A stretch of DNA of 64,000 bases from Octopus vulgaris (Eukaryota), in contig OX597819.1 of the NCBI GenBank assembly GCA_951406725.2, positions 133,982,001 to 134,046,000 of the forward strand, written 5' to 3'. The notes below the pieces were generated by a model, which worked only from the letters and a program-made list of their open reading frames with translations, was not told the DNA's origin and did not search any database. Of this stretch, positions 30,172 through 64,000 are shown piece by piece. Both the position numbers and the translations under genes were made by a program. How positions within the stretch are numbered: the first letter of the stretch is position 1; every line of letters starts with the position of its first letter.

Positions 30172-31049
30172 TCATTTAAAATATTTTAAAGTCTTCAATT
30201 TAGCGTGGACACAAACTTGACCTAGTTCGATATGGTTATTCAATAGGTTTCTATGTTTTCTATGCTTTAGAATTTCATATGTCTCCATGGAGCATAGTTG
30301 GCAACCAACCCTACTATTTTTATACGGAATTGCTCTCCTAACTATTTCCCAATTAAGGTTATAATTTTTATTATTATTTTTGAGTTCCCAGATTTTGTTT
30401 GAAAGTGTGGTGGTACCAGCTTTATGACGTAATTTAAAAGTCGAGATGTGATTTCTAACTCTAGCTAAAAAATTTATTGTACATCCAAGGTAATAATATT
30501 TGTTATTCTCCGTGGATATGGTACATTTATAGATTACATTATTTTCTCCACATAGACCAGGTGCCGGGCATTTTGATTTTATTCTACACTTACACACAGG
30601 AGGAATACCTTCAGGCTTTGGATTATTCTTGGGTAGATGTTTTAGGTTCCTGTTATTTTGATTATCATTTCTATAGTTGGTGCTGATATCTAAAGTATTG
30701 CTATTATTTCTTGATCCTTCTGTTTCATTATTTAGATCTAAAGTCCTACCATGATTTCTTATATTATTGGTAATGTTAATATTATTGCTAGTCTTTTTAT
30801 CCGACTGCATATTGTTGTTATAGATATCACTAATATTTTCATTCTCCTTATTTTCTCTATTTTCCCTATTTCTATTATTTTTATTATTAACATTATTACT
30901 TCTACTAATATCGGCATTGCTATTATTACTATTAATGTTAATGTTATTAGTCATTCTGTGGTTACTAATTTCACCTATGTTTTGATAGTTACTATTGCTG
31001 CTTTTATTGTTGGTAGTATTATTACAATTGCTATTGGTCTTCATGCCGA

Positions 31050-31080
<31 letters not shown>

Positions 31081-33036
31081 TATATTTCTATCTTTCCTGG
31101 CTAGTTTAATGTTGTTATTATTAATCTTAGCTATTAAAGTGGACATATTTGGGAGGGTTGAATAAGAAATCCTAACTGTTTTCCTAGAAATAATTCTATG
31201 ATATCTATGAGAGATAGGGAAATTTTTTTCCAGAATCACTTTGAATTTGTTCTGTATATCTGATTGTATCGCACAGTTGAAAGGAATATTCAGCCATAAT
31301 ATATCTTTTTTATTAAATTTAGGGTTCGTAGAATTATTACTATTCATCTCACCGGAGTTATTGTATTTATTACCATTATTTTTATTTTTATTTGTGTGCA
31401 TCTTAGGTTTATCTACTTCAATACTATCCGAGTTACCTATGTTCTGGTCAATGTTTCTATTTGAATTGTTGGGCCTGTACGCTAGACTAGTGTTTACCGT
31501 TAGTTTAATTCTACTTTTATTTCGGGCTTGGTCTTTATTGTTGCTTACGTGATTATTGATAACTCCATTATTAGGAATACTTGAGTTCCCCTTATCAACG
31601 AATGTAATCTTTTGGTTGTATCCAGCCTTAGTTAACGCCGCATTATAATGCTCAGAATGGGAGTTAAAAATATCCCTATTGGATGATAATTTTGAAATTC
31701 TTAATGAAATATTTCTTACTAAAGATTCTATAATATTTGGGGGATGATTTGATAATTTATTTACGTAATTCGTGATTTCACCCTCCTTTCTAAATGGGTA
31801 ATGTAGTTTGGAGTTAAGGTCTAGCGTAGTATCTAGGAAATTAACTATTTTAGTGCCCGGTTCATACGTTATACTGAGGTTGAAATCCCTAAAGAACTTA
31901 TTAATTTTCTTTCTAATCCTTTCTATAACAGATTTATTATTACTAGGGATAACAAACAGAGCATCATCCCTATATAGACCCCCCTGTAATTCTGGGATAT
32001 CCTTGCTTATGCATTTTAATAGATATGCGCCTACTAGGTTGGTTACCTCAGCCGAATCACTGGAACCCATTGGTATATCAAAAAAATTTGGTGTATCCGC
32101 TCTAGTCCATAATTTATCTTCAAATTCTATAAATGTCTTCCTAGCTAGTAGCACAATATTGATTTCTTCTCTAGATATTAGGGAGCGATTCATGGCAAAT
32201 ATTAGTGATTTGTTGAGTAAGATAGGGGAAATGCTAGAGTAATAACTATTAATATCGAACTGAATAAAGGACAGACTACTAGTATTAGTTAGAGAGTTAA
32301 ACCATTTTAGAACTTCATCGGTACTTAGCCATAGGTTTAAGGGGAGAAGAGGGGTTATTTGGGGTAGAACAGTATCCAAGATAGATTTACTAAGTCGGCC
32401 AATGTCCGACCTAGTTGGACAGATCAGCCTTACCGAAGGGTTTTCTAGGAAGTTCTTTTTGTGGTCTTTAAGGTTGATCCTGGGCTCACACGGTTTAAGT
32501 GGCTCCGTTCTATCCGTTAAATTTAGCTTTTCCATGATCTCTTTCATTTCCATGTTTACCTTTTTCAAATTAATCCTAGTCGTAATTTTATATTTGGAGT
32601 TTAGTTCTTTCCTTATTAATTTGCTATAAATATCGTAATCAACTCTATACATATTACCCGTTTTATCTGCTGGTACTAGGATTCCATGTTTGCACCGGGT
32701 TGACTGAATAAAGTTCCTAAGGTGTCTAAGGTGAGGGTTATACCTTAACGGGTGTTCCTTGAAGCTAATATCATCTATAAGATTCAGCAAGTCTTTCTCA
32801 AAATTCTCCAGGAATGGGTTCTGAGGTGGGCTTTTTCTACTTTTAAAAATTCTTCTAAAATTCATTTCGGTATTCCTTTCCTGTGGTTTCTTCTTCTGTT
32901 TGACATCAAAATGGTACGTTTTCCACCTGATTCTTCTGATGAAATCGTTAATCCTATGAATGAGAAGCCAATTATACTCATCTATACTATGTAAGGGGAT
33001 GTCTTTAGGGGAGAACTCAATGTTTACTTTTTCCAT
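30172..33036 (-). CDS. PLE polyprotein: reverse transcriptase + C-terminal GIY-YIG endonuclease (Naiad-like), ~954 aa from the first ATG (MEKVNIEFSPKDIP)
   Basis: RT motifs VPADKTGNMY, NLKDHK..F..NP..RLICP, QFDINSYYSSI, FDIPMGSSDSAEVTNLVG, GLYRDDAL, VNFLDTTLDL, SNHPPNI. Endonuclease CKCRIKSKCP..GLC..NVIYKC...YYLGCT...R..NH...CQLC..E...LN....CVH. No internal stop. Confidence 0.95.
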
Positions 33037-33239
33037 TCTTGTTGAGAAATTAAGTACCAGAAAAACATACAGACTGTATGGGAATATATTCAAAAAGCAA
33101 TAAAGATTCAAGTTAATTTAAATGAATTTACTTGAATATGGTACCTAACTTAGATGCACCAAAAAAAACTATACTGATTTAACAATACAGTAATGTGGGG
33201 TGATTATAAGCGAGAATGAAGCAACAAGAATGGATAGGT

Positions 33240-35230: not shown

Positions 35231-35844
35231 ACATTATTGGTGAATTGAAGAAATGGAGCTGAACGCAGATTGAACAGAAATCGTTTTATTTCATTCTACA
35301 CGTGTTTCGAAAGGCACAAATTACCAAAATCCGATGGAATAATGGGACCATATTGTGTCTTTCTCTTCAGGAAGAAAATAGGAAATCCGTTGGAAAAACA
35401 AAAACAGAACAGAGGCGGAGCAAAAACAAATCGAACTATGCTCCTAAGAGCCCATGGCGAAACTCGCCATGGGCTCTTAGGAGCATAGTTCGATTTGTTT
35501 TTGCTCCGCCTCTGTTCTGTTTTTGTTTTTCCAACGGATTTCCTATTTTCTTCCTGAAGAGAAAGACACAATATGGTCCCATTATTCCATCGGATTTTGG
35601 TAATTTGTGCCTTTCGAAACACGTGTAGAATGAAATAAAACGATTTCTGTTCAATCTGCGTTCAGCTCCATTTCTTCAATTCACCAATAATGTTCTAATT
35701 TCAATTATCCGCACCAACGCACGGTTGCAACACCATATGGTTGTACCTCCAACCGTGCTGTTTTACTGCTGTGATTTTTGCTACTAAGGTATCGGTTAAA
35801 CTTTTGATTAATCTACTACAAGATTATTCATCTTTCTATTTCAC

Positions 35845-45292: not shown

Positions 45293-48200
45293 TTTTATTG
45301 GCCACACAGGGCTGGACACAGAGGGGACAATTACAAATGTAGAGCTTTTCTTTTCAGAGATGGAAAAGGAAAAAGAAGAAAAAAGAGAAAACAAATGTAA
45401 AATTTCGATAAAAAGGGATCGGAAGAAAAAAAAGCGATCAAAAGGGATCGTGTATCACAGAAAGAAAATGTGTTTTTTTTTCTTCAAAGTTACAAACAAG
45501 ATTAGGTTCATCCGAGGAAAGAAAAGCCTACAGAAAAGACCACGGTAACATTAGGCAGGGAGGAAGTAAACACATGAGAGCAAAGTGCTCTCTCTCTCTC
45601 TTTTACGATTTACAGGATCATGCTCAAAGTGGTTTCGTTCTCGCACGCACCATCTTTACTACATTCACCCACCTTTTTTTGAAACTTTCACGAGAGAAAA
45701 CCTGCCTCTCCATTCTCACCTTCCTTTTCAAGTGGTACTTGAAAAAATTGATGAGAGATTGGCCAGAGAGGTAAGTGTTTGTCTCTAATCCTTTCGCTCG
45801 ATTCCACCACACACATTCTTTCACCATAGCCACCAGTACGATGAAGACTGCTTTAACTTCCCGGTTGAGGGAAGGGGGCGGCGCAATTTCGACGATAGAC
45901 TCGGCCGACAGGCGGACTCGTCCCACACGTGACAGCAGCCCACAGGTCTGAAATGGATGGACACAGCACGAGTGCGTGCAGAACGGTTTAGTTGCTCTGA
46001 CCGCATCTCGGGCAAGTCGGTCCAGTGTGTCTCGAACCGTGCCTGTAGAGCTTATCCGGAACAGGTAATGCTTCTCGATAGCACTGCCAGGCCAGAGATC
46101 TTTGGTGATTGTCCATAGGTCCCGGCCCGAAAGTTGTCCTGAACAGGCGGGTCAGGTGTTCCTCGTCGACTCCCAGATTCTCCCCGAGAACGTCGTCGCA
46201 CCTCCCCTCCACTAATCCTCTATAGAACGCCTTTGTTGTAATGAAGTCGCACAAATTTGGTCCCGGACGGCAGAGATGCTTGAGAGCAACGCGACACTCG
46301 CGGTGCCATTCGCCTAGCCTTGTTTGATCCACGACCGTAGTTCGGCCAAGGAGACGAGCTGCGGGAAAGCGCGTCGCGCAAAAGACGACCACACCTGTTC
46401 ACCATCGTCTATGAAGCGCCGGAGATGTCGCAGTCTCAGCGCATGTCTGTGCGTCATCAACCACGGCATGCTTAGCCCTCCATTTAGCGGGTGTTGACAG
46501 CAAATGGATCGCCTAACCATCGGAACGCTTCCCTTCCACACGAAGCGGAAGAGTATGCGTTCCAGTTTGGTGATGGTAGGGTCGGGACAAGGCACGACGG
46601 TCAGGCGGTACTCGATGACGGGTGCGATGTACGCGTTCGCCACCTCCGCCCGACCTTTTAGGGATAGCTTCCTCTCAGCCCATCGCTGGGTGAGAGTGGC
46701 CACCCTAGTCGTTATTTCGCCCCAGTTCTTCTCCATTTGGAGGTCCGGACCGAACCAGACTCCGAGCAATTTAACCGGTCCGTCGGTCCAGTGTCCCACG
46801 ATGGAGACGCTGTTGGACGGCATGGGCTTGCTTCTCCAGGTGCCGAACCGCAAGCCCACTGACTTTTCCCGGTTAATTTTTGCTCCCGTTACTGCTTCGT
46901 ATTCTTTTAGTATCTCGCCGACCAGGTCGATGTGCTTGTGGCTCGACACTATGATGGTGACGTCGTCCGCGTATGCAGATACGCTCCTTCCGCATCCCAG
47001 CTCTCGTGGGATGCCCATCAGCATCGCCAGTTTCTGCAGTAGTGACTTAAGAGTCAATACATACAGAAGCGATGAGAGGAGGCATCCTTGACGAACCGAA
47101 CGCATGATGTTAAAAGGTCTGGAAAGATGACCATTTACGCGAACTACTGAGCGGATGCCGCTGTATAAGGCAGCGATCCAACCGCGGAAGATGGGACCGA
47201 AACCAGCCGCTTTAAGGACAGCCTCCAAGTAGTGATGGTCTACCCTATCGAAGGCTTTTGATTGATCCAAATTGATCAGCGCCCCACCCATGCCAGGATC
47301 CTTAACTACCCTGTCTATGATGTAACGCATCAGATGGAGGTCGTCATGGATACTCCTACCTGGCACGGCGCACGTTTGCGCCTTGTCGACTAGTTTCTCG
47401 ATGACAAGCGCCAAACTCTCAGCTAACACCTTGGCCAAAATTTTCAAATCTGCGTTGAGCAGACTGATGGGTCTGAAATCTTCTATGACGTCCCCTTTTT
47501 GGATCTTTTTTTAGCAGTGCCACTGCTCCTTGCTTTACAAAGGCGGGATACTCCCGTTTTGCTGCCAGTTGCAGTAGACAGCTGCCAAGACGCCTCCAAA
47601 CAAGTCTGGCATATGACAATAAAGTTCGTAGGGCAAACCATCCAAGCCTGGTGACTTGTCTCTCGCGCAGCCTGCCATTGCATCCCGTACGTCCGCGGCT
47701 GTGATGGGTTTTTCACAACACTACGCCTCTCTTGCTGAGAGTCGTGGCAGGGCATGCAGGTAGGCATTAAAGTCCACTCTGCGTTCTGACCCACCACTTG
47801 TCCCAAACAGTTGGGTAAAGTGTTGTTGAAAAGCCTCACACATCCTTTCAGGTTCGAGTAATTCGAGCCCCTGTTCATCTGTAAATGACCTGATGGTGGC
47901 TCTGTTGCCTCGTTGCGTCTCCACCACTCGGGCCCCTCGGGCGGCTTCAACTCCTTCGTTCCTCAGAGCACGCATCCTAGCTCTGACAACGCATCCTTCG
48001 TGTTTGGCGTTGAGGTGTTGGTCGAGGGCCAACCTCGCTGCCAGTACGTTGGATGCGATGCCAGTTTTAAGTGCCTCTTCTAAATTCTTAACTAAGTCTC
48101 CCCCTATTCTATTTCGGTCTAATGCTAGGGCCTTACTCTACCTAACCGATTCTGCTTTAATTGCTTTCTTTAGGGCATACCACCATCTGTTGTTGATTAT

Positions 48201-48485
48201 GGCACCCGTCAAAGCTCTCTTTACTAATGTGCTAATCCGGTCCCTGTAAGCCTGGCGTGCCGTGAAAAACGCGTTCAGCTTCCAGTAACCAGGACCCTGC
48301 CTATGTGTCTTATCTAAGTCAAGTGTACAAGTCACAAATTTGTGGTCTGTGTAGCTGACTATATGGAATTGTGGACAACCTACACTATATTTATCTACTG
48401 TCCTACAGAATACCCTATCTAAGTACGATCTGGACGACCCGATGCGGTTGCTCCATGTCCACATTGGCACATTCGGGTGGTCCAC
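45211..48485 (-). mobile_element. 5'-truncated, frameshifted Tx1/L1-clade LINE ORF2 (APE endonuclease, RT, C-terminal Cys motif) with a (TATC)n tail
   Basis: EN: WTW..SYLDRVF...TDHKFV...YWKLN (48138-48485). RT: KILAKVLA, LDQSKAFDRV, SVRQGCLLS, AYADDVT, LLGVWF (46314-47447). CPRCGQS near 46000. 3' UTR ends at (GATA)n 45211-45291. Confidence 0.92.
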
Positions 48486-48570
48486 TTGAACAGTCCGATG
48501 ATAGCTTAGGTGATCGAAACTCCAAAATTACTGTCAATACCATTTTTGTTAAAGAATAGGGAGTGGCAGA

Positions 48571-55883: not shown

Positions 55884-58800
55884 AATATATATATATATGT
55901 GTGTGTGTGTATATATATATTCTGTTGATCAGAATTTAGGAACATAATTTTGGTTGCGATGCTAAGTTTGAATATTGTGAGACAAATGCTTCAATGTATG
56001 TTCTTTCGGGAGTAATCCTATTTTCCCGAAGTAACAAAGTACATTTGGACATTTATTTCATACTCAGTCTCGCAGTGTATTCAATGCTGAGTCCATAAAT
56101 ACCAACTCTGTAGAATAGTGTTTCGTTAGATTTTCTTTAGTCAATGCAGATCTGATGTAATGGAGGAATCAACACCAATAATTCTGCTAGCAGTCGATAT
56201 TTAGCAGATCTTTAAATCACTAAACATTCATTTATTACAATGGTTCCTTTTAAAATAAGGTTTTCATTTACTGAATTAGCAATAAAACCGGGAGATATGC
56301 ATTGAGCTCCAGCTGTCGTTATAAACTAGGAAGTTTCTTAGAAGGTTCGTTAGCATTAAGCAGCCCAACAGTAAAACAATTGACCACGTTCCATCAATAA
56401 GCAGTATCCTATCTCAGTGTTTCGCTATCAATGAATTAACGAAGCAAAACATATTGATGTTTGGCAGTTTCCTATTTTAGTATACAATAGAATAGAAGTC
56501 AAGCCATAAATGTTCAGAAATACTTTGGGAAATTCAAATTTTAGAATTCACAATTAGAAATAACCTAAATGAAGCAACGATTGCAAATCCATTTACCCTC
56601 ACTAATCAATTCAATGAGCTGTTATCACATTCTCTCCCCTTCACTGAGCAACCAATGGAAGCATTCGTGTCTTCAAAAGGTAGATATACATAACCTCCTC
56701 ACCCAAACACCTTTTTTCAGCACACCTGGATACGTAAACTATTCTCATGTCCCATCGTTGCCATTCATACTTCATACAAGAGTGAAACAAACTGTACGGT
56801 TGTTGCTCCTGACTTTACAACAAACTTGCTTTACACCGCTGTTGTACCATTGAGGTCTGTAAGCTGTTGTGTCTTATGTGTGTTCTTATGATTTAAAGAA
56901 TTAGCTTCTCTTAAAGTTAAGCTAATAATTATAGGATTTTGTATTGAGCATGTGTGTGTGTGTATTTCTATGTGCGTATGTGTAAAGGTGTGTAGTGTAT
57001 ATGTAATTTCCCTCTATTCCTAAATTTGTGCGATGTTTATGATTCTCATCAGTTAGACCTGTTTTGTATTGTTTTTGGTTTGGCTTCTTCTAATTAACAT
57101 AGCATATTTAATTTAATTTTTCCGTTTGCAGTGATGTTGTTTATTTTAAGTAAACAGCGGAGCGAAAATCATTCTTTTCCACTTCTGTTGAGTTATTTAA
57201 CTTATATTTTCATAGTTCAAGATAGCAACATCAAAGACATTATTCTCATAATTAAACTCTTTCGTAAACGAAGAAGAAGATATAATGACGAGAAATATAG
57301 CAAAGGTGGAAAGATAGATGAGATTTCTTATTATAATTTGTTATTCTACTAACTTATGTTACTACACATCCGTAGATGAAAGTTCACCTCTGGTAATACA
57401 GTGCAGAATGTTGGCGGTTTGTTATTAATGATAATATTGTTAGTTACTGACAGAAATTGGACTTGACGTTTATCCCACTATCCCGTTGCATATTTTGTTA
57501 TCCATCGTTTTGCTTTCTTTGCCGTCCAACGTAAATTTGTTTCAACTTTTCTAAAACCTCGAAACATGAGGTTAATTTCGTTTCGTTTTCGCTTTCCCTT
57601 TACTAAAACTCCAAAGTTTTAAACTTTGAAGGGATCCACAATAATATATTTATTTTTAAGCAATGAAAACACCATATTAGGAAATCGTGCGTTTCAGTAA
57701 CTAAAATAAATAAAATTAATGCAAGTGTAGTTTTATCATTGTTGGATTAAAGCTTGAAATGCTCTAATTATTCTTACTTTTAATTGTTCTTTATTGAGTT
57801 TGTTATTTTGCTCTTCTTAATTACCCGCCTCCGCGTTTTTTTCTCCTGGTGCATATTTTTATGAAGATTGGTAGTTTAAGTTTACCTCATATATAATCGA
57901 CTGACTTCAGTATTTAAATGGACACCAATTTATTAGAGACAATATTATTTGTAATGTGAAAATAGTTAACCAATATGTTTCTGGTCCTTTAACACAATAT
58001 TCCTTTAATGTTTGTTCTTGTGTCAAGTCTCCCTGTTGATAGACGCTAATGTGAAGACTATGTTGACTATCCATTCCTGTTTGTAAAATGAAAAGATATG
58101 TTACAGTTGTAGCGATCAATATCCAGGAATTAAACATCCAAGGTTTAAATGGAAAGAGACAAAACTCTGAAAACGCTTACATCCTGTAGTGTCCATTAGA
58201 AACAGGCAGATGTGTATTAAGTACAAATTCTAACGATAACAACCTTGGATAATACATCACTCTGCAATATATTATGGGTTTAGCTTCCTTGCTCTCTCTT
58301 TCTCTCTCTCTCCCTCTCCTGTCTCCCTCACTTTCTCTCTCTCGCTCTCCCTCTCCCATCTCCCTCACTTTCTCTCTGTCTCTCATTCTATCTTTCTCTT
58401 TCTTTTTCTTTCACTTCCTACTAAGAATCTAATACTTCACTAAACTTGACAAATGCAAACGACTTCTACATAAATAGACTTCTTCTTACACTTTCTCTCA
58501 ATTCAATCGTTTCTTCACTACCTTCACCCGACGAAACCCTCCCCACAAAATAGAATGCACTGAAATTCCATTCGCTTCACTATTTACTCCTAACATCAGT
58601 CTACAATACACGGCGAGAATGTTTCCTGCAATAACTTCACACATTCATCTAGCACTTTACGTAATACAAGAATTACTCAAAGCCCTCCAGTGCCGCTTCC
58701 AAAATAACAGACATTTCGATATCGTCTTTCAGCTTTACTTCTGAAATAAAGAGCCATTGCAAATATTTTCTAATATTCTTCATAATTTATTTATGGAATT

Positions 58801-58963
58801 TGAAAATAATCCACTCCGTCGTCGATATCTTTATACATACATATATACATACATACATATATATATATATATAATTTTAATCCAAACGGGAAACAAAAAA
58901 ACAACAACAATGGAACAATTACAGTATTATTATTAATAGGCGCTCAGGAAATGGAAGCAGGGA

Positions 58964-59000
58964 GGTATGACGTTTCGAGCGGAGCTCTTCGTCGGAAACA
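58964..59000 (-). ncRNA. Minimal hammerhead motif (C at position 4, decayed stem I)
   Basis: Reverse complement: TGTTT-CCGACGA-A-GAGC(TCC)GCTC-GAAA-CG-TC-ATACC, typical PLE minimal-HHR layout. Confidence 0.65.
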
Positions 59001-59539
59001 TAAAGAAGGAAGAGAGAGGAAAGAAAGATCCCGGAGCGGGCAACGGAGATAGAGAAAAAAACGGCTGGTGTTAGGAGTAGCACATGGTGAAAGGCGGATG
59101 TTTACGATAACAAGAGCAAAGTGGGTTTTTAAAGGCAAAAGAGTGGAGACAAGGTTGGTAACGCAACAGATGTGTGTGTATGTGTGAGTGTGTGCGTGTG
59201 CGTGTGTGTATGTGTGTGTGTGAGGCGAGGTAAAAAAACAAAAAATATATGTATGTGTTAGTGTGTGCGTCTGTGTGTAGGCGTGTGAGGTAGGGCGAGA
59301 CGGTGGTCAGCATAGCAGCAGCATAGCAGACAAAGGTCAGTAGTGAGAAAAGGGAGGAAGGAGGAAGGGAGGGAGGGGAAGGGGTGGGGGCGTATGTAGC
59401 GTGCCAGCGTGTGTTGAGTAGTAGTGTGTGTGTGTGTCCAGTGTCGTGGTAGTATTAGTGGCGAGTAGATTGAATGTGTGTAAGAGTGATGTATATGTTT
59501 AAGCAATGTGTGTATATGTGTGCGCGTGTGTGTAACGAA

Positions 59540-61445
59540 AAAAAGGGGGGTTAGGAAAAGGACTCCAGCGGAGGGGAAGATGGAAGAGTGGTCCCGCGGA
59601 GACGGGCGTGGGAAAACCCAACGACAAGCGACATCCCAGGAACGGGCGGGAGGTCTCGTCGGGTCCAAGGGCGAGGTGCATGCGGCGCGCATGCGTGCGC
59701 GAACCGGCGCAAACGCGTGTGTGCGCGAGCCTGCGAGTGTGCGCGTACGTATGTGTGCGTGTGGATGTGTGAGTGTGTCTGTGTGTATGTCTGGGTGGCA
59801 GTGTGTCCGATGAATGTATGTGAGTATGTGTGTATATATGTGTGTGCATAGATGTATGTCCGTGTGTGTGTGTGTGTGTGTATGTGTGTATGAGTGTGTA
59901 TGTATGTACGTGTGGGTGTGGGGAAGTGTGTGTATGTGCATGTGTGTGCGCGAACATACAGGTGTGTGAGTGAGTGCGTGTGTGTGTATGTATGTGTGAG
60001 TGTGTATGTATGTGTGTGTAGGATGCATGTATGTGTATGGGTGTATGTATGCGTGTGTGTATGTATGTATGTGTACGTGCGTGTGTGTGTGTGTATGCGT
60101 GTAGGTGTGTGCGTGTGCATGCGTGCATGTATGTGCGTATGTGTGTGTGTGTGCATGTGTGTGGGTATATATGTGTGTGCGTATATGTGTGTGTATGTGC
60201 GTACATGTGTGTGTGTGTGTGCATGTGTGTGTGTAGGTGTGTAGGAGTGTGTGTATAGGTGTATGTATGTAAGTATGTATGGGTGTGTCCGTGTATGTGT
60301 GTATGTATGTGTGTGTATGTAGCTGTGTGGGCGTGTGTATATGTGTGTGTATGTAGGTGTGTAGGCGTGTGTATATAGGTGTATGTATGTATGTCTGGGT
60401 GTGTCCGTGCATGTTTGTGTGTGTGTGTGTATGCATGTGTATGTAGGTGTGTGTGTACGTGTGTAATGTATGTGTGTATGCGTGTGTATGCGTGTGTATG
60501 CGTGCGTGTGTGTATGTAGGTGCGTGTGTATGTGTGTGGGAGTGTAGGTGTGTGTGTGCGTGTGCGTGTGTGATGTTTGTCATGCATGTGTGTGCGCGTG
60601 CAGGTGAGTGTGTGTGTAAGTATGTGTGTGTGTATGTTTGTGTGAGTGTGTATGTGTGTATGTCTGTGTGTATGTATGTGCGTATAGGAGTATGTAGGTA
60701 TGTGTGTGTGTATGTATATGGGTGTATGTATGTATGTGTGTGTGTGCATGTGTATAAGTATATGCGTGTGTGCGTATGTGTGTGTATGTGTATGTGTGTG
60801 TGTTTATGTATGTGTGTATGTATGTGTGTAGGCGTGAGTGTGTAGATGTATGTATGTATGGGTGTGTGTCAGTGTGTGTTTGTGTGTGTGTAGGTAGATG
60901 TGTGTGTCTGAGTGAGGGTATGGCTGTGTAGGTGTGTGTGTGTATGAATGTAAGTGTGTGTGTATACAAGTGTAATGTATGTATGTGGGTGTGTGTGTGT
61001 GTGTATGTGTACGTGTGCGTGTGTATGTGTGTGTGTGTATGCGTGTGAGTGTGGGTGTATGGGTGTATGTCTGTGTGTGTGTATGTCTGAAGTGGGTATG
61101 TGTGTGTATGTATGTATGTGTGTGTGTGTGCGGGTATGTGTGTGTGTGTATGTGTGTGTGTGAGTAGGTGTGCGTGTATGTATGTGGGTAGGGATGCATG
61201 CGAGTGTGTGGGTATGTATGTAAACATACGCAAGCGCACATCCGAAGCAAGCCCACACACACGAAGCGCGCTCACGCACACAACGCACAAGCAGTGCAAC
61301 GCAAGCCCAAAGGGGCCGACCGAGCCCCCAGCGCGCGCCAAGGCGCGCGAGCGCAAAGGCCCTCGAACGCCCCGCTACGCGGGAACCGAGGATCCATCGG
61401 CCAAAACCGGAAAGCAGAAAAGGGGGGGCAGCCTGGATGCAAAAA
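59540..61445 (-). ncRNA. Putative bipartite structured RNA (59540-59754 + 61224-61445) split by a microsatellite loop
   Basis: Six colinear helices pair 59629-59754 with 61224-61399. Many plus-strand A.C mismatches become G.U pairs on the minus strand. Confidence 0.6.
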
Positions 61446-61861
61446 GGTGTATGTGTGTGTGCATTCAGTGTACGGGTGTGCATGTGTGGGTATGTATGTA
61501 TGTATGTGCCTACATGTATGTGTGCATGTGTGTGTGTGTGAAGTATGTACGTGCGGTGTGTGTGTGTGAGTGTGTGTGTATGTATGTGCGTATGTATGTG
61601 TGTGTGTATGTGTGTATGTATGTCTGTGTGTGTGTGTGTGTGTAAGTATGTATGCGTGTGTGTATGTATGTATGTGTGTGTGTATGTGCATGTGTGTCTG
61701 TAAGTGTGTGTGATTAAATGTGTGAATGTATGTACGTAGATGGGTCTACGTATGTGTGTGTGTGAACAGGCGTGTGGGAGGTAGGTAGGTGGGTGGGAGG
61801 TAGGTGGGTGGGTGTGTGTGGGTGGTGTGTCCGGAAAAAAAAAAAAAAAAAAAAAACGGTC

Positions 61862-62186
61862 TCAAGAGGAGGGGGCTGTGTTAAGTCCGTGTGGGGTGGT
61901 AGTTTGTAGGGTGAAGATGTAGCGTTGCTCCAAGTGGAGCCTGGAAAGTGGGCGACCATTGTGGGGGGCGAGACCAAACACTGAGATGTCATCTCGGGAA
62001 TGGCCGGCCGAGCGGAAGTGGCGTGCGACGGGAGAAAAAGAGTGTAGGCGAACGTCCCTCAAGTGTTCAGTGAAACGGTCGGACAACCGGCGTCCCGTCT
62101 GACCTACATACAGCATCCCGCATAGGTTGCATTTAATGCAGTAAATAAGGCCAGACGAGGTGCACGTAAAAGAGTGCCTAATGCGT

Positions 62187-62190
<4 letters not shown>
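61862..62190 (-). pseudogene. PLE GIY-YIG endonuclease fragment (Neptune-like)
   Basis: IRHSFTCTSSGLIYCIKCNLCGMLYVGQTGRRLSDRFTEHLRDV...PVARHF...LEQRYIFTLQTTTPHGLN. The frame is open up to the (TA)n at 62190. Confidence 0.9.
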
Positions 62191-62251
<61 letters not shown>

Positions 62252-62789
62252 GTATTAAAATGGGGAAGGCCGGTTTACGGGATTACCTTAGGTTTCCTGT
62301 CCATAAAGGGTTTAGTGTTATGGCGTATATTCAGATCCCAAAACCTGTTGGCCCAAGACCTCACAACTCAACGGTAACAATGGGGATTATTTCCCTTGGC
62401 TATCGGCTATCGAATTCCGGGTGTGTACGCCATCTTGAGGGCTCCAAAAGGCTAGCAGGAACCTCCTGAAATGTAAACATGGCCCGAAAATCTCCGTTCT
62501 GGAGTTAAGGATGTTCCCTGGTTCGAGGGAGTCCTTTAGGATTCCGCCCGTTCAGAGATTACCATAAAATTATGCATAATTTGTATCGTTTTTCCGCTAG
62601 GTTCACGAGGATTTTCCATGAGATCGAATATGGAATCCCATCGTCTCTCAGTTGCCATACATGGCTGGCCGATGATGTTACGTATCTCCTTTAACAACAA
62701 TAGCAATAACAGAACCAGCAACGCCGCCACCACCGCCACAGTTAACTGCTGTTATTGTTATTGCTGTTAAACACTAGCAATAACAACAC

Positions 62790-63410
62790 TTGGATTATTA
62801 AAAAGTTCAGTGGAATATTGGTATACACGCACAGAATATTATGAGTTCAAAAAGGTTTACATTATAATAGTAGGGAAGCTAAAACTGACCTGTCCACCAT
62901 GTTAACGTAAAAGAAATAATTCCTTCTAGAAATTATCTTGAGAATGTATAATATATTTGTTGTAATCTTTTGTGCCCAATATTTCAATGAACTTGTTAAA
63001 CTTTTTTATGTTCTTAACATGCTCTTGTCACCAAAGAATTTATATATATGTATTGTGGTACTCTGCGTCAACCAATATTCTGTGCGTGTTTGAATATACA
63101 GATACAATACCAATATCCCACTGAACTTTTTAATAATTCCTTCTGGAAACTATCTTTTACATGTTCTTGAGAATGATTATTTATGTTATAATCTTTTGTG
63201 CCCAATATTTTAAGGAACTTGTTAAACTTTTTAATGTCCTTAACATGTCCTTGTTACCAAAGACTGTATATATGTAATGTAGCATTTTGTAACAACCAAT
63301 AATTAACGCAACCAAACTTCTACATGTTACTTTTGACAATCTTTTTCCAAAGAGTGAAACCGGTAAAGTAAATAAACATCTTTTAAAATTGCATTTTCAA
63401 ACCTTCTTCC

Positions 63411-63413
<3 letters not shown>
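62790..63413 (+). mobile_element. Old non-coding element with diverged tandem units, an inverted fragment and a variant HHR
   Basis: 62917-63075 resembles 63133-63300 (offset ~216). 62795-62840 is the inverse of 63074-63136. Ends at (TA)n 63414. Confidence 0.65.
63327..63371 (+). ncRNA. Type I hammerhead ribozyme, U3-A8 core variant
   Basis: TTACTT-TTGACAA-T-CTTTT(TCCA)AAGAG-T-GAAA-CCGG-TA-AAGTAA, with a perfect 6-bp stem I. Confidence 0.6.
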
Positions 63414-63464
<51 letters not shown>

Positions 63465-63465
<1 letters not shown>

Positions 63466-64000
63466 TCTGGTCAACAGAGCTCAAACTGTGGCATGCCGCC
63501 CTGGCTTTACTCTTCCTGTCAACTATGACACCCTCTGTGTTACCAATCTTTGCTCCCAGATACACGAACCTCAACCAACTCTAGTGGGTTCCCGCCTATA
63601 TTCATAATCTTCTCTGACTTCTTAATGTTCTCTGTCACTTCGTTTTAATTTCATTCATTTTCAGCCCCACACCCATCGACACAGTCTCCACCTCCTGCAT
63701 CAACTCCTCTGCTTCTCTCACTGTGTTTGTCACCAGAACTATGTCGTCAGCAAATTCAGCATCTGATGTCTTTTTAGCCTTGACCCTCCTGCTCTGAGCC
63801 AGTGCTACAGTAGTAAAGCCAGAGTGTTTTTCCAACGCAAGGTGTATACAATGGTCTGAGATCTGTATGGAAGTCGGACCTCCGTAAAGACCTGAAGATC
63901 CGTCTCTTCGTTGCTGCAGAGGAGTTTGTGCTGGTGTACAGGTCTGAGACTTGGGCACTCACCAAGAAACTGACTCAGATGGTGGATGGGTGCAACCTGA
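63465..64000. pseudogene. RTE-clade LINE RT fragment with a 5' inversion (runs off the window)
   Basis: Minus strand 63833->63465: EFADDIVL...GLKMNEIKTK...FVYLGAKI...RKSKARAACHSL. Plus strand from ~63834: YNGLRSVWKSDL..KIRLFVAA...LVYRSETWALTK....DGC. Confidence 0.8.

Follow-up and report, generated by a model that had tools for sequence, protein, structure and literature searches.

A predicted long-range stem with an A-to-G signature in the 3′ untranslated region of an octopus PLE family

Results

The window analysed here, a 64,000-nucleotide stretch of Octopus vulgaris DNA, carries on its minus strand a 5′-truncated PLE copy that abuts a (TA)n tract. Read in the sense of the element, the truncated GIY-YIG coding end is followed by a T-run, a CA-rich repeat, a 5′ arm, a loop, a 3′ arm and the distal UTR, all on the minus strand. 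At its 3′ end (61862–62179), the PLE ORF matches the GIY-YIG endonuclease domain (PF01541) at E 4e-4, below the curated cut-off, and leads into the proximal 3′ UTR (61446–61861), where the T-run precedes about 400 nt of CA-rich microsatellite. The 5′ arm (61220–61412) is G/U-rich, with a GC-rich outer half and a (UG)n-like inner half. The 3′ arm (59563–59759) is C-rich, with G raised to 25%, compared with 5% in the loop between the two arms (59760–61219), a CA-rich microsatellite of about 1.46 kb that is predicted to be paired at about 15% of its length. The distal 3′ UTR, or pseudo-LTR (58876–59562), runs down to the 3′ end of the element at the (TA)n tract and contains a minimal hammerhead-like motif (58965–58999) with a U4C core change and one helix I mismatch, by comparison with the description in the available part of PMC4209133. 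The earlier note on this DNA had placed the arms, as two islands, in a pure GT/AT microsatellite; the microsatellite is instead the element's 3′ UTR, which is copied along with it, and not a pure genomic tract.

The family bearing these arms is a young PLE of Neptune type, present in about 800 copies in a host genome of 2.8 Gb. A 24-base pattern from the 3′ arm gave 799 matches in the genome with up to three mismatches, a control pattern gave none, and two genome searches with the 5′ arm returned 399 and 417 first-look candidates. Identity across the top arm loci was 97–100% in most blocks. The GIY-YIG lay upstream at 29 of the top 30 5′-arm loci and the pseudo-LTR downstream at all of the top 30 3′-arm loci, and on contig C1 an exact 3′-arm match followed 29 of 31 5′ arms at a distance of 1,451–1,831 nt. 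When 60 5′ arms were examined, a 3′ arm lay no more than 2.2 kb away in 54; those without a counted partner were one at a locus edge, one 3′-truncated copy, one lacking the centre of the 3′ arm, one with a broken 3′ arm and two unplaced. The arms are thus part of the PLE and are carried along as a set, as the earlier note had supposed. A stand-alone MITE or Helentron-type element was ruled out because of the linkage to the GIY-YIG and the pseudo-LTR.

An unbroken RT+EN ORF of 949 aa was found in L068, the one intact frame among ten complete ORFs checked, and it has the architecture of EN+ PLEs, a single ORF in which RT is accompanied by a GIY-YIG at the C terminus. A Pfam search at E 0.001 gave no match, and weak matches appeared once the threshold was relaxed to E 1 (RVT_1, E 0.001; GIY-YIG, E 0.01), both below the Pfam cut-offs. 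Protein homologues numbered 927 at E ≤1e-50, and most of those listed carry RVT_1. In the translation, a Cx4CxxC linker of the CX2-5CxxC type stands ahead of the GIY-YIG; the accessible text of PMC8557442 gives such a linker as a feature common to Neptune and Nematis, and by this sign the element fits one or the other. Tandem units of about 6.15 kb (L061, L062, L063, L070, L075 and others) create pseudo-LTRs, a PLE trait. The hammerhead core reads C-C-G-A-C-G-A in most copies, compared with the canonical CUGANGA, with a helix II of 4 bp and three of four pairs in helix I. In most full-length copies (L061–L078), the frame is broken within a C-rich stretch some 500–550 nt past the start codon, likely the result of homopolymer slippage or an assembly error.

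The arms, each about 200 bases long and separated by about 1.4 kb of 3′ UTR in this one family, are real, and their complementarity is far beyond chance. Co-folding on the minus strand gave −221 kcal/mol, as against −173 ± 5.5 kcal/mol for dinucleotide shuffles (z −8.8), and the pairing withstood this control, since none of the 100 shuffles folded as well; the plus strand gave −203 kcal/mol (z −5.0). All five segment pairs whose positions the earlier note had listed are present in nested order, and four of the five pair better on the minus strand. A sixth (59630–37 with 61390–99) is absent from the predicted fold, in which 61398–93 pairs with 59579–84. The latter helix, together with 61383–77:59593–99 and 61374–70:59603–07, makes up the outermost set, which the note had overlooked; these are the best predicted and best conserved helices, with P >0.8 in the native 2-kb fold (3′ strands at 59579–59609, partners at 61398–61367).

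The predicted co-fold of the window copy is a rod of about 145 pairs, in which most helices are short (4–11 bp) with many bulges. The middle may alternatively be branched, a local hairpin inside the 5′ arm (61332–61349, P 0.96) being predicted there; the two forms lie within 1–11 kcal/mol of each other by prediction, in keeping with the multi-branch form envisaged before. The 5′ arm gained −52 kcal/mol from pairing with the 3′ arm, compared with −21 to −36 kcal/mol with nine windows lying wholly within the loop. In native-length folds of three other copies, 74–82 arm-to-arm pairs were predicted, and 40–68 bases of the 5′ arm, mainly from its (UG)n-like inner half, were paired to the loop instead. 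The outer half of the duplex very probably forms in RNA and the whole arm-to-arm duplex probably does so, and the stem is likely an RNA-level feature specific to one PLE family. A long duplex of the kind expected of an ADAR substrate is predicted on the transcribed strand.

Older subfamilies were found with a degenerate endonuclease pattern and with searches using diverged copies, one of which supplied 38 loci, and the 54 paired copies were sorted by eye into seven groups of 16, 2, 1, 3, 20, 8 and 4 copies. A loop-only tree recovers Y, Y+M+M2 and O1b, and O1a and O2 do not form single clades. Between the youngest and oldest groups, the majority sequences agree at 84% in one arm and 74% in the other. 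Each group folds in the same register, at −213 to −233 kcal/mol, around a loop of 1,048–1,585 nt, a variation in length that had been anticipated. With the one-copy group excluded, 131 arm-to-arm pairs are predicted in at least four of the six groups and 81 in all six. Among the 131, 88 are invariant, 22 vary on one side yet stay paired, 6 vary on both sides and 21 are broken somewhere; the small number of two-sided changes and the broken pairs count against the explanation proposed below. Across the 54 copies, 94% of cells are paired, compared with 24–67% when the arms are slid by 1–4 columns; even slides leave 76–81% paired in the inner half, which a dinucleotide repeat would lead one to expect. 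The first outer helix is invariant in all seven groups, 40 of 48 columns of the outer 5′ arm are identical in six, and the outer helices are nearly invariant together with their pyrimidine internal loop.

Between groups, the arms change 4–5 times faster than the loop, with a distinct spectrum. A>G changes are ten times denser in the arms (10/79 vs 13/1,016 in the loop, p 1e-6) and T>C changes are also raised (24/181 vs 21/314, p 0.02), as are transversions, whereas G>A and C>T show no rise in the arms over the loop. The direction of change rests on the bases that the old groups share with sister family C in the endonuclease and on pattern counts: an old A faces a young G in 6 columns (2 in reverse), and an old T a young C in 18 (4 in reverse). 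Many of the A>G changes lie opposite U and leave a U·G pair, and columns 184/358 run through the series U-A, U·G and C-G across groups. In the inner 3′ arm, G/(A+G) is 0.40–0.59, compared with 0.07–0.11 in the loop. ADAR editing fixed by reverse transcription and followed by compensation would leave such a pattern and may explain the A-to-G excess, with odds that we place a little short of even. Against it, few A>G changes are private (5/1,388 in the arms and 21/17,827 in the loop; 2/1,595 in another count), and no clear ADAR neighbour preference is seen. Heavy editing of repeats in cephalopods is described in the available parts of PMC9068888 and PMC5625713.

A strand bias accompanies this signature. 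On the sense (minus) strand of the element, G·U pairs outnumber A·C pairs by 19:6 in the youngest group and up to 32:5 in the oldest, a bias that the earlier note had pointed out and that was counted here in a strand-neutral DNA alignment of one arm against the reverse complement of the other. In addition, 25 pairs are seen as both Watson–Crick and G·U, compared with 4 as Watson–Crick and A·C, and the sense strand folds better than the antisense strand in 53 of 54 copies. CpG decay was ruled out as the source of the G·U bias by the lack of a rise in C>T and G>A in the arms.

We considered whether this pattern reflects selection for pairing or a neutral by-product, in which an inversion supplied the duplex, ADAR turned A-U into G·U pairs, and G/C-biased repair or arm conversion in a DNA hairpin turned these into G-C. 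Several results argue against neutrality. The Watson–Crick share is steady at 64–70% in all seven groups, and neither this share nor the co-fold energy falls from old to young groups. When the same differences were placed at random, the fold energy of the real subfamily was matched in 0–1 of 40 trials in four comparisons, at a cost of 15–35 kcal/mol over the real placement. Native arm pairs beat chimeras by 17–26 kcal/mol (reciprocal sums, three comparisons worked out), and the near identity of the outer 5′ arm across six groups is likewise at odds with a by-product. With the one-copy group included, pairing was kept by 41/53 inherited one-sided transitions vs 32/60 private ones (p 0.01), and U>C changes affected 19/161 wobble U vs 9/183 U in U-A pairs (p 0.03).

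Other results suit the neutral account. When the structure was taken from a third group, transversions were only weakly depleted in paired columns (27/1,111, 2.4%, vs 13/304, 4.3%, in unpaired columns; p 0.12), and transitions stood at 4.8% vs 7.6% (p 0.06). In this test, both groups retained the pair at 41 of 53 paired-column transitions, and a pair was broken by 25 of 27 transversions. The pairing bias lies in the transitions, and a mutational route could also give it. The subfamilies are related, so that the counts are not independent and the p-values are generous. Neutrality is further favoured by the fast turnover of the arms, by sister families that do without the stem and by at least one copy (L137) that has lost the centre of its 3′ arm. 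On balance, we regard selection for pairing as somewhat the better bet and a wholly neutral by-product as rather unlikely.

The composition of the arms bears on their origin. G makes up 38% and A 4% of the 5′ arm, compared with 5–14% G elsewhere in the element, a composition antisense to that of the element, which suggests an inversion. It is likely, judging from composition, that the stem began as an internal inversion, with UTR sequence copied in reverse orientation; inverted insertions are a known feature of PLEs (PMC8557442, in the part available). The opposition drawn in the earlier note, selection on RNA rather than a DNA inversion, therefore turns out to be a false choice. The GC-rich outer arm halves gave no BLAST match at E 1 in the element, the sister families or the window.

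In the same genome, the arms are absent from sister families C, E and F, at 82% DNA and 58–68% protein identity. In all 11 sister UTRs scanned, self-complementarity scored 10–44, compared with 98–132 for three rod-bearing copies, in a scan that can miss a rod (in L149, an old copy, a local palindrome gave the top score, 62). Family C, with endonuclease DNA 81–84% identical, has a CA-rich UTR of 2–3 kb and no rod, and compaction is therefore not required; family E (66–68% protein identity) has a UTR of less than 1 kb and family F a CA-rich UTR of about 1.4 kb. Among 80 metagenome loci, the 22 that were scanned past the ORF showed no stem between ORF and hammerhead, and in 12 of them the hammerhead lies 98–150 nt past the ORF; high scores in three (L197, L200, L225) fall beyond or across the element end. 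Viral contigs contained no relative.

These comparisons yielded several side observations. Long CA-rich, G-poor 3′ UTRs are common to several Neptune-type families of this genome (L109–L128, L133–L139), as compared with UTRs of 100–150 nt in many metagenome relatives. Compared across the window copy, L133, L134, L139, L094 and L137, helix I of the hammerhead is mismatched in the rod-bearing family, more so in L137, and perfect in families C and E, and the family E hammerhead has one core base changed. Ten of 11 short family C copies (L082–L092) share a start point almost to the base, some 85 nt upstream from the hammerhead core, and full copies extend further upstream; the shared start is either a preferred 5′ boundary or the mark of a short non-autonomous form.

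Finally, the 3′ arm shows a modestly raised density of 5′ truncations. On contig C1, 15 of 78 copies were lost over a 255-nt stretch, compared with 16 of 63 over the 760 nt that follow (uncorrected p 0.02), a weak trend, with truncation markers of sensitivity 43/47 and 25/29. Of 14 distinct 5′ truncation points, five (L012, L016, L017, L020, L024) fall between −88 and +17 nt relative to the 3′ arm's inner end, equivalent to 59740–59850 in the window. This excess suggests that the stem is encountered by the RT, and every interpretation under which the stem forms would accommodate that.

Discussion

We propose, with a probability of about one in two, that the 3′ UTR of this PLE family carries an imperfect stem of about 130 bp around a CA-rich loop of 1.0–1.6 kb, which arose by inversion and has since been shaped by ADAR editing and selection. 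In the first step, about 200 nt of UTR would have been duplicated, inverted and inserted upstream of the source sequence. ADAR would then edit A in the duplex, and the RT of the element would copy the edits into new DNA, so that U-A pairs become U·G. Later U-to-C changes would restore pairing as C-G and be retained. The benefit of the stem would be structural rather than catalytic: it would shrink a 3-kb UTR to an effective length of about 1.1 kb and stabilise the RNA. That compaction and stabilisation are indeed the benefit is unlikely enough that we offer it only tentatively. Going further, the element may be an autonomous retrotransposon with its own long-range ADAR substrate, in which an edit-and-compensate cycle drives the evolution, at the DNA level, of a functional cis-element that aids RNA survival or copying; we see this as possible, on the doubtful side.

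Neptune-type PLEs share with the element the RT and C-terminal GIY-YIG, the Cx4CxxC linker, tandem copies, (TA)n targets and a hammerhead-like motif near the 3′ end; a 3-kb microsatellite UTR with a long-range stem sets the present element apart, and the available parts of PMC8557442 and PMC4209133 contain no mention of one. Naiad PLEs likewise have a structured RNA in the 3′ UTR, the SECIS, but as described in the accessible text of PMC8557442 it is a short local hairpin beside the stop codon. The earlier note knew of no such stem in PLEs, and none is described in the titles and abstract openings that literature searches listed. In the main text of a recent O. vulgaris repeat annotation (PMC13282606), the terms Neptune, hairpin and structure do not occur. 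A further likeness is to inverted Alus and palindromic Harbinger repeats, ADAR substrates that also combine a long imperfect duplex in non-coding RNA with an A-to-G signal (PMC5625713, available part). The present case differs in that both arms lie within one autonomous retroelement and are inherited with it, and any edits could therefore pass into DNA through the RT that it encodes.

Little is known of cis-acting RNA elements in PLEs beyond the hammerhead and the Naiad SECIS, and here a long-range stem can be traced through six subfamilies in one genome, with about 800 copies as replicates. The A-to-G excess, if it is due to ADAR, offers a testable case of RNA edits inherited through retrotransposition. 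The stem is specific to one family and therefore reveals no general step of PLE mobilisation.

Drosophila hpRNAs are host loci known to give siRNAs. They show a similar profile of long, G·U-rich stems with compensatory change, which raises a second alternative, namely that Dicer cuts the stem into endogenous siRNAs that restrain the element or other CA/UG-rich transcripts. The long imperfect stem, whose sequence turns over while pairing is kept, would suit such a precursor, but the predicted helices are mostly short and heavily bulged, and a young, abundant family fits poorly with self-silencing. We consider this alternative improbable.

It is hardly more than a slim chance that the stem is a specific module, such as a scaffold that binds RT or positions the template, a new ribozyme or a captured ncRNA, as the earlier note had put forward. 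The nearly invariant outer helices and pyrimidine internal loop, the helix I mismatch confined to the rod-bearing family in comparison with C and E, and the denser truncations at the 3′ arm would accord with a module. However, the arms change faster than the loop, and three many-copy sister families lack them, so that the rod is not a general RT scaffold. The short distance from ORF to hammerhead in metagenome relatives speaks against a module as well. Rfam, with the arms scanned in place and unjoined, gave no match at gathering score in window 57000–64000 (0 of 47 listed) and none in four older copies. Moreover, the RT of the Anolis element Poseidon binds and initiates right after the hammerhead, according to the available part of PMC11167929; in the present family the hammerhead is some 600 nt past the 3′ arm. 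Two further candidates were rejected: a SECIS, given that the ORF lacks a conserved in-frame UGA (in L068 it is open for 949 aa) and that Rfam gave no SECIS match, and an intron or back-splicing of the loop, for which the one donor-like site noticed is, as judged by eye, lost in old copies.

Three other features were observed in the window. A second, AT-rich PLE lies on the minus strand at 30172–33117, with an open frame of 981 aa and an RT 23% identical to that of the rod-bearing family. At 35263–35661 there is a near-perfect palindrome of about 400 bp, both strands of which give nearly the same 121-aa translation. The minus strand at 45600–48530 holds a GC-rich non-LTR retrotransposon that is broken; it has frames resembling RT and endonuclease, and by eye it looks L1/Tx1-like.
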